This document shows, one piece after another, positions 24,055 through 25,425 of a stretch of 64,000 nucleotides of DNA. Both the position numbers and the translations under genes were made by a program. The stretch lies in the NCBI RefSeq assembly GCF_055900595.2, contig NZ_CM148325.1. One strand, written 5' to 3'. Numbering within the stretch: the stretch's first letter is position 1; each line of letters begins with the position of its first letter. The notes below the pieces were generated by a model. The model made no database searches, was not told where the DNA came from, and was given only the letters and a program-made list of their open reading frames with translations.

Positions 24055-25425
24055 ATGGAGTTACTAGCTTATAGTATTATAAAATTAATTTGTAAAGAAG
24101 CTGCCTCAGGGACGTATAACGGTGCTCTTGAAATTTTACAAAAAATGATGTCTGAATGTAAATATCATGAAGGCAATGCTTTTGTCATTATGGGAGCCGG
24201 AGAACAATTAAAACGTATTAAATATGATGCTAATGAAAATAAATTAAAAGTAAACAACGTACACTTTGATAATAATCAAGAGTTAGTTGCTGATGGTGAG
24301 CCTGACGTAGTATTTTTAAAAAAAACGGTGTGGGAAGACCTTCTCGTTAAACTAAAGCTGGAGAACAAAGAAAATGCGGTTTCTGAAATTAACCTGTCAT
24401 CTAATAAAAATAATGTTGATCAGTTTATTGAATGCGCTAAGAGAAATGAACAGACCCTATTCGACAATATAAGAAAAAGTGATTTTCATGTTGCTTCACT
24501 TCAGCCAGGTAGAACGCGTAGTGTTATTTCAGAAACGCCGCCAAATGACTGTATGGAATCACCTAATTTATATGAAAACCACACAGATAAGGTTTCAACT
24601 GTAACTAAAAATTCTCAGCAAGTTAAAGGTCACTATGGAGATAAGTTGAAAGAAATGCAGTTGTTCCTCAACCAGATGAGCAATGCACTTCAACAGGATT
24701 CATCTTTGTTAGAGTCAAAGGAACACACCATAGATATTCAAGAAAAAACGAATAAGTTTGTGCAGCATTTTCAGCGGGTATTATTTGATAAAAATGGAAG
24801 GTCATCAGAGTTTCTACTTAATTTTTATGAGTGTTGCTATAAGTTTTTACCAAGAGCGCAGCCTCAAGATAAAATCGATAGCTATAATTCAGCACTGCAA
24901 GCTTTTTCCATCTTTTGTTCATCTACGTTGACACATAATAATGTAGGGTTTAATTTCAAATTATTTCCAGAAGTCAAGCTGTCTGGAGGAGATCTTGAAA
25001 CGGTATTCAAATACAAAAATGGCAATTTTGTCTGGGAGATAGCCAGAATTAAAATTACTCTCCCAAAAGAAGAGGGTGGTTTATATAATTTAGGTGGATT
25101 GGACTTTAAGGGGTGCTTCTTTTCTGGACAGAACTTCAGTAACTATGATATTAAATATGTGAACTGGGGGACGTCATTGTTTGATGTTGATACTCCGTGT
25201 ATTTTTAATACGCCTGCTAACAATGAGAGTTATGAAAAATCATTAAAGCCTGTGAGCGAAAACGGTTTAAATGGAGTCTTATCTGATCGTAATAAAAAAA
25301 TAAAAATGATCACGGGCGTGGCACCATTCGATGGTATTTCATCTATGGATGATGACTTTGATGATAGTTCCTCTGAGGATGAGCCCGTTGAGAATAGTCC
25401 TGTTGTGACTAGGCCCCTTGTATAA
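24055..25425 (+). CDS. Hypothetical protein, 456 aa, AT-rich (YpjB/YpjC-region protein)
   Basis: Long ORF in an AT-rich island; no signal peptide or TM segment; acidic Ser/Asp/Glu-rich C-terminal tail; no family recognised. Confidence 0.6.
   Translation: MELLAYSIIKLICKEAASGTYNGALEILQKMMSECKYHEGNAFVIMGAGEQLKRIKYDANENKLKVNNVHFDNNQELVADGEPDVVFLKKTVWEDLLVKLKLENKENAVSEINLSSNKNNVDQFIECAKRNEQTLFDNIRKSDFHVASLQPGRTRSVISETPPNDCMESPNLYENHTDKVSTVTKNSQQVKGHYGDKLKEMQLFLNQMSNALQQDSSLLESKEHTIDIQEKTNKFVQHFQRVLFDKNGRSSEFLLNFYECCYKFLPRAQPQDKIDSYNSALQAFSIFCSSTLTHNNVGFNFKLFPEVKLSGGDLETVFKYKNGNFVWEIARIKITLPKEEGGLYNLGGLDFKGCFFSGQNFSNYDIKYVNWGTSLFDVDTPCIFNTPANNESYEKSLKPVSENGLNGVLSDRNKKIKMITGVAPFDGISSMDDDFDDSSSEDEPVENSPVVTRPLV

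Follow-up and report, generated by a model that had tools for sequence, protein, structure and literature searches.

A long AT-rich open reading frame beside ileY as a 5'-frameshifted allele of the accessory gene ypjCB

In this study, we analyzed an uninterrupted open reading frame (ORF) of 456 amino acids (aa) that lies at positions 24055..25425 (+ strand) of a 64,000-nucleotide stretch of contig NZ_CM148325.1 (RefSeq assembly GCF_055900595.2); this whole stretch is hereafter called the window. Our results make it very probable that this ORF represents an allele of ypjCB, an accessory gene so far encountered only in Escherichia coli and Shigella whose product would be a soluble protein of two domains, and that the copy in the window is damaged at its 5' end. 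Gene and protein family are already named in public annotation, and it is the state of this particular allele, together with the mode of evolution of the locus, that we mainly discuss below.

Identity of the open reading frame and the K-12 fragments

The translated ORF matches the NCBIfam model NF050179 ('YpjCB family protein') with 912 bits (E = 7.5e-275, cut-off 650), and Pfam finds DUF5507 (PF17612) followed by DUF5508 (PF17621) within the one polypeptide. Its position agrees with this assignment, since the ORF lies between the tRNA gene ileY and the pinH remnant with ypjA behind it, as ypjCB does in annotated E. coli loci. In the K-12-type locus a single frame runs from MLVSKSNGF...AKRNE to a TAG codon and then on to ...SSSKSSFQ; this copy additionally has a 105-nucleotide (nt) in-frame deletion, and RefSeq, through the prokaryotic genome annotation pipeline (PGAP), labels it 'ypjCB, pseudogene, internal stop'. 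Judged from the aligned sequences, K-12 ypjC (b2650, 160 aa) and ypjB (b2649, 263 aa) are hence two halves of one gene, split by a nonsense codon. A preliminary description of this DNA, made from the letters of the window, had placed the ORF at the ypjB/ypjC loci and had supposed that the K-12 genes are fragments of it; the family model, the pair of DUF domains, the synteny and the K-12 TAG all bear this out, and the alignment against ypjB and ypjC that it proposed as a check gave precisely two fragments of one frame with the TAG between them. The fusion is not new, however, as RefSeq and NCBIfam already hold the gene name, both DUF domains and the K-12 split.

The window copy is the same gene as the named family members, with which it shares 80-94% protein identity, but it differs from them in several respects. 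It lacks model positions 1-28 owing to an 11-nt deletion; it retains a 35-residue segment that about 72% of the carriers, K-12 and O157:H7 included, have lost; and it contains no internal stop, unlike the K-12 copy. By sequence comparison it is a truncated or damaged member of the YpjCB family and does not represent a different family. The features of the locus are as follows.

23155..23230 (+): tRNA gene ileY (anticodon CAT; tRNA-Ile2, the AUA decoder), left landmark of the ypjCB locus; ARAGORN calls tRNA-Met(cat), Rfam scores tRNA at 67 bits, and the RefSeq orthologue is tRNA-Ile
23898..23925 (+): TTGTCT-16-TATAGT, a sigma-70-like promoter match by consensus only (9/12 positions), upstream of the canonical start
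23970..23974 (+): Shine-Dalgarno sequence GAGGA, 7 nt before the canonical ypjCB ATG, conserved in 9/9 aligned alleles
23982..23999 (+): what is left of the canonical 5' end, MLVSN (ATG and four further codons) before a TAA, with 11 nt gone after 23995 (alignment of alleles)
24055..25425 (+): main ORF of 456 aa, covering ypjCB from Met at family codon 29 up to the stop codon; a Shine-Dalgarno sequence is lacking before it (NCBIfam NF050179)
24055..24450 (+): N-terminal domain DUF5507 (the YpjC part in K-12), residues 1-132 (Pfam PF17612, E = 1.8e-64, model 29-160 of 160)
24451..24669 (+): variable central linker, residues 133-205, modelled without regular structure (predicted local distance difference test score, pLDDT, 20-30)
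24670..25422 (+): C-terminal domain DUF5508 (the YpjB part in K-12), residues 206-456 (Pfam PF17621, E = 1.3e-142)
25093..25158 (+): largely invariant block GGLDFKGCFFSGQNFSNYDIKY, residues 347-368 (15/22 positions invariant in a 24-sequence alignment)
25339..25422 (+): acidic Ser/Asp/Glu tail SSMDDDFDDSSSEDEPVENSPVVTRPLV, residues 429-456 (isoelectric point, pI, of the tail 4.05; modelled as disordered)
25748..25915 (+): pinH remnant (Pin-type serine recombinase), right landmark of the locus; every annotated locus compared has the orthologous stretch as 'recombinase family protein, incomplete'

The 5' end of the window copy

Members of the YpjCB family normally comprise 484-492 aa, and both the NCBIfam and the Pfam profiles match the 456-aa product of the window only from model position 29, so that the models are not covered over their full length. 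The DNA alignment places an 11-nt deletion right after ATGTTAGTTAGTAA (23982-23995), and because of it the canonical start is out of frame and reads MLVSN followed by a stop. When nine alleles were aligned, this gap was present only in the window and in locus L001. In the other alleles GAGGA is followed, after 7 nt, by ATG TTA GTT AGT AAA AGY AAY G.., which keeps the frame across 28 codons up to an invariant Met; in the window the long frame resumes at this former Met29 (24055). No Shine-Dalgarno-like sequence precedes 24055, and no in-frame ATG, GTG or TTG lies upstream of it. In a strain whose sequence is 99.9% identical, PGAP called an ATT start at the equivalent of 23995, giving a product of 476 aa. 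An ungapped match to a 75-nt probe across the deletion junction was obtained in 8 of 5,426 complete E. coli genomes, while 515 further genomes, including that of the enteroaggregative E. coli (EAEC) strain 042, have this allele family without loss of the 11 nt. Since so few genomes carry the junction, the lesion is both recent and rare.

These observations suggest that ypjCB in the window is probably either null or poorly translated, with an N-terminal truncation at Met29, and that this copy probably does not make the normal product. The deletion has disconnected the frame from the canonical ATG and the Shine-Dalgarno sequence. Two points weigh against this reading: the claim of a null allele draws on just two observations, the frameshift and the absent Shine-Dalgarno sequence, and the first 28 codons could be dispensable, given their dN/dS (ratio of nonsynonymous to synonymous substitution rates) near 1, and a product starting at Met29 might then be functional, provided that it is translated at all. 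Taken further, this leads to the alternative that Met29 is the true or a sufficient start, that the extension formed by the 28 upstream codons is dispensable, and that a working 456-aa protein is made. Met29 is indeed invariant throughout the aligned alleles, the 28 codons ahead of it are the most variable part of the gene (mean entropy up to 1.0), and all 456 remaining codons are open, with a single residue changed relative to the 99.9% identical strain. However, the stretch before 24055 has nothing comparable to the GAGGA and 7-nt spacing that every allele has at the canonical ATG, the 28 upstream codons are stop-free and in frame in every other allele examined, and the curated NCBIfam and Pfam models include these residues; moreover, as the deletion is rare and recent, the open frame downstream of it is uninformative on selection. 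We therefore consider a functional start at Met29 rather unlikely and retain the 5'-damaged allele as the preferred explanation. The earlier proposal that the window may hold the intact ancestral gene fails accordingly on the deletion and the 28 lost codons, and the supposedly 'intact' ORF has to be corrected to a 5'-frameshifted allele that PGAP rescues by means of an ATT start.

Distribution, decay and selection of ypjCB

The gene is present in 3,067 of the 5,426 complete E. coli genomes (57%), always on the chromosome and nearly always as a single copy; among the records listed it is absent, for example, from a strain of sequence type 131 (ST131) and from Nissle. A 75-mer identical to K-12 and including the TAG codon was found in at least 1,228 genomes, and the junction of the central 105-nt in-frame deletion in about 2,215. 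This deletion covers family positions ~208-242 (window ~24592-24696), and the variable linker overlaps its start; the O157:H7 copy carries it with the frame still open (449 aa). Further lesions were seen in a small, non-random sample: a 1-nt deletion in ECONIH1, a nonsense codon plus a 1-nt deletion in 2015C-3107, frameshifts together with a 126-nt insertion bearing terminal inverted repeats in PI7, and a frameshift in 09-00049. Independent lesions were observed in four loci (L004, L006, L007 and L010) besides K-12 and the window. The insert of PI7 (L007), at the equivalent of window position ~24446, resembles a miniature inverted-repeat transposable element and is bounded by the terminal inverted repeats GGAAGGTGCGAATAAGT ... 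ACTTATTCGCACCTTCC.

The gene is intact in JNE25-003 (484 aa), 10035776-3 (491 aa), Xuzhou21 (449 aa) and MS1685 (472 aa), and the full-length protein clusters comprise hundreds of contigs each. In the 472-aa allele of MS1685 (L011) the central linker (residues ~140-250) is unrelated in sequence while both flanking domains are conserved, which on this comparison is a cassette-like replacement. The alleles are also mosaic, as the C-domain of the window is almost identical to that of ECONIH1 (synonymous divergence, dS, 0.04), whereas their N-domains differ at dS 0.18. Outside this set, a scan of genome contigs with just two 7-residue patterns, too narrow to judge other Escherichia species by, returned one locus. 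The sequence DEQI01000374.1 (L012), a 2.8-kb contig in the metagenome-assembled genome 'Planococcaceae bacterium UBA3370' (Firmicutes), carries an exact K-12-type array of ileY remnant, ypjC and ypjB; this locus is almost certainly a contamination of the bin with laboratory E. coli.

Selection on the locus was assessed by Nei-Gojobori estimates, which gave the following values.

Whole ypjCB: dN/dS 0.5-0.8
ypjCB C-domain: dN/dS 0.26-0.65
ypjCB N-domain: dN/dS about 0.4-1.7
First 28 codons of ypjCB: dN/dS around 1
Flanking glaH, window versus K-12: dN/dS 0.03, dS 0.36
Flanking lhgO, window versus K-12: dN/dS 0.09, dS 0.12

Between the window and K-12, dS of ypjCB amounts to 0.14, which is comparable to that of the neighbours; hence the protein evolves about ten times faster than theirs, and the locus is no older. 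As 5.3% of point changes in ypjCB would create a stop codon, about nine nonsense changes are expected among the ~162 differences between two intact alleles, and none was seen. This count weighs less than it seems to, because the alleles were chosen for being intact and are thus subject to ascertainment bias. In addition, long blocks of the protein are invariant across alleles. On these substitution patterns, ypjCB is under weak purifying selection with recent, repeated loss, and it has not been drifting freely for most of its history.

We also considered whether the ORF is no gene, i.e., a chance open frame or a long-dead pseudogene in neutral drift. The high dN/dS of the whole frame, the numerous broken copies and the lack of a homologue elsewhere are what such a sequence would display. 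The frame itself argues strongly in the other direction: at its base composition, chance would leave 456 codons open with a probability of ~6e-17, and alleles separated by a dS of ~0.16 have remained open over 449-491 codons, where neutrality predicts the nine or so nonsense changes mentioned above. The invariant blocks and the dN/dS of the C-domain, which stays below 1, point the same way, so that we regard this explanation as barely credible. The preliminary description had named, as evidence against its own reading, many disrupted homologs without any conserved full-length version; the first part of this picture was found, as disrupted copies are many, but the second was not, as conserved full-length versions exist. 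We thus return to ypjCB as a gene that selection would have held open for most of the past of E. coli and that now appears to combine weak constraint with repeated loss.

Possible role and surroundings of YpjCB

The full product is a soluble, acidic protein of ~55 kDa that consists of four parts: a variable N-peptide of 28 residues rich in Ser, Asn and Thr, the conserved DUF5507, a variable linker, and the conserved DUF5508 with its acidic tail. The version encoded in the window is hydrophilic (grand average of hydropathy -0.52, pI 5.3) and contains no candidate membrane segment or signal peptide, its highest 19-residue Kyte-Doolittle mean being 0.87; ten of its last 31 residues (426-456) are acidic and one is basic. 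In these respects the preliminary description, which had reported a long AT-rich ORF without signal peptide or transmembrane segment and with a Ser/Asp/Glu-rich acidic C-terminus, was accurate. A profile search with HMMER among 1.84 billion representative proteins revealed no relative outside E. coli and Shigella, with one full-length cluster and otherwise fragments of ypjCB. Three matches were discarded: those to a 3,960-aa adhesin (12 repeats to positions 386-438) and to a eukaryotic tandem dehydrogenase were, on reading the sequences, judged to be summed weak repeat matches, and P0168 is a chimeric read artefact with two copies of the unrelated peptide MCIRDR. The PDB sequence search (E <= 10) and PADLOC gave nothing, and the sole match in PHROG was to an unannotated family.

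AlphaFold2 models were of low confidence (pLDDT 41 and 50), and the underlying alignment is shallow, with all sequences from E. coli at 80-94% identity. Structure prediction and Foldseek, proposed at the outset as a way to a fold, therefore delivered only in part: models were obtained, and the fold searches made with them returned generic helices or YpjCB itself only, the C-domain retrieving from AFDB50 solely E. coli 'YpjCB-like C-terminal domain' entries. The low confidence of the models makes the absence of fold matches weak evidence, a point that also counts against our reading of the protein. Because neither a catalytic motif nor a known fold is detectable, we lean toward a role in protein binding or in host or community interaction rather than that of an enzyme.

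The preliminary description had further noted a weak pentapeptide-repeat character, which would make YpjCB a right-handed beta-helix that mimics DNA (as Qnr and MfpA do) or an effector similar to PipB2, with the acidic tail adding to the mimicry. Residues 347-368 do hold the segment in question, and the sequence from 347 to 376 may be divided into about six imperfect pentads (LDFKG CFFSG QNFSN YDIKY VNWGT SLFDV) that share with the proteins of the PF00805 clan a periodicity of about five residues and a central Phe, Leu or Ile; the block varies little among alleles, and modelling places short beta-strands in it. However, no Pfam pentapeptide profile matches at E <= 10, a long tandem array of A(D/N)LXX is lacking, the repeats discerned by eye are too few and too irregular, and the fold searches with the low-confidence models gave no beta-helix match. 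At the level of sequence profiles, the pentapeptide-repeat reading is effectively refuted, and we deem it extremely improbable. GLDFKGCFFSGQNFSNYDI is a largely invariant block of YpjCB.

Alternatively, YpjCB may be a substrate, cryptic or 'fossil', of some type III secretion system (T3SS), be it ETT2 (E. coli type III secretion system 2), LEE (the locus of enterocyte effacement) or one similar to Mxi-Spa. The analogy is with icaR (yjgL) and icaT (yfdF), AT-rich genes of E. coli and Shigella that are absent from most B2 strains, are often truncated, were shown to encode T3SS substrates and have been described as possible fossil genes (Silue and Campbell-Valois 2022, PMC9241512). The variable first 28 residues would then be the secretion signal, and the two domains with the acidic tail would act in the host cell. 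Several features fit: in full-length alleles 50-61% of these residues are Ser, Thr, Asn, Gln or Gly, with 1-2 acidic residues and 1-2 Leu, although such a composition is a heuristic only; the protein has neither a Sec signal nor a membrane segment; its G+C content of 35% lies in the range of icaR, icaT, ETT2 and the pINV entry region (PMC9241512); its spread resembles that of icaR and icaT, with K-12, O157:H7 and EAEC 042 positive, the ST131 and Nissle records listed negative, and decay frequent (PMC9241512); and O157:H7 and S. sonnei retain an intact copy. YpjCB thus has in common with IcaR and IcaT the ~35% G+C, the restriction to E. coli and Shigella, the occurrence in many non-B2 lineages, the frequent truncation and, probably, silence in ordinary E. 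coli. On the other hand, there is no MxiE box (GTATCGTTTTTTTANAG) near ypjCB: a scan of the 64 kb with up to 3 mismatches gave one match, at 22363-22379 inside the amylase gene, against a chance expectation of 0.72. Similarity to YjgL/IcaR, the one of the two that was compared, is likewise absent (best BLASTP E = 1.1 over 18 residues), and the searches against Pfam, PDB sequences, the 1.84 billion proteins and AFDB50 found no homology to any effector family. The likeness is hence one of analogy and not of membership, and we judge secretion by a T3SS improbable. If it nevertheless took place, the window allele, which lacks the 28-residue peptide whose composition fits such a signal in full-length alleles, would be a signal-less, non-secretable null, and the fast evolution and repeated loss would reflect a changing host interaction. 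We keep to the more general reading of an accessory protein given above.

The surroundings of the gene are unusual in base composition. The ORF has a G+C content of 0.352 (0.309 at third codon positions) and lies in an AT-rich block (20000-26200, G+C 0.37), while the whole window stands at 0.494. The gene order is gabD, lhgO, glaH, an amylase-family gene, tRNA(CAT) ileY, the ORF, the Pin-type recombinase remnant and the autotransporter gene ypjA. We propose that ypjCB belongs to an AT-rich islet, made up of the amylase-family gene, ileY and ypjCB, that would have been acquired horizontally beside the ypjA/ssrA region. With ileY (lysidine-modified, reading AUA) the islet brings its own decoder for a codon that is rare in E. 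coli (PMC2408971). The flanking glaH (19031-20008, - strand) shows 92.7% DNA identity to the K-12-type copy and the adjacent lhgO is closer (96.4%), a contrast in divergence that hints at an old boundary of recombination at the islet's edge. Scans for promoters and terminators found sites in the region to be no commoner than expected from shuffled sequences, and Rfam (E <= 1, 23000-26300) gave the tRNA plus sub-threshold noise and nothing else. Downstream, a 64-nt stretch at 25544-25607 has a 93.8% match to a segment that a 15-kb plasmid record (H40) labels 'ssrA'. As no similarity links this stretch to the tmRNA gene of the window itself, it was dropped as a candidate attachment-site repeat. 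The ypjA/ehaD-type autotransporter ORF (26233-31035, +) is open and, counted from its earliest possible start, spans up to 1,600 codons, and the tmRNA gene ssrA (31196-31557, -) follows directly after it, so that no CP4-57-like prophage lies between ssrA and ypjA here.

Published work on K-12 provides some indications of how the locus is regulated. In an Hha pull-down the ypjC region was enriched 4.6-fold, and the same study measured a 9-fold induction of ypjC by reverse transcription PCR (PMC2408971); genomic SELEX (systematic evolution of ligands by exponential enrichment) placed a constitutive RpoD promoter, flagged H-NS, in the spacer between ypjC and ileY (PMC3946193). Moreover, deletion of ypjC made the K-12 biofilm more permissive to an enteroaggregative strain, while constitutive expression was without effect (PMC3646849). 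The phenotype comes from a strain in which the gene already is a pseudogene, and may thus be a polar or RNA-level effect. Together with the reports of Hha binding and of the H-NS-flagged promoter region, the distribution of the gene would be consistent with YpjCB acting across the species as a dispensable, niche-specific factor.

We herein describe a ypjCB allele whose discovery value is small, as the gene and its K-12 halves were already present in public annotation. The gene itself is a strict E. coli/Shigella orphan that combines protein evolution about ten times faster than that of its neighbours with many independent inactivations. Hence, ypjCB may serve as a reasonable, if unremarkable, candidate in screens for cryptic effectors or for H-NS-silenced accessory factors.

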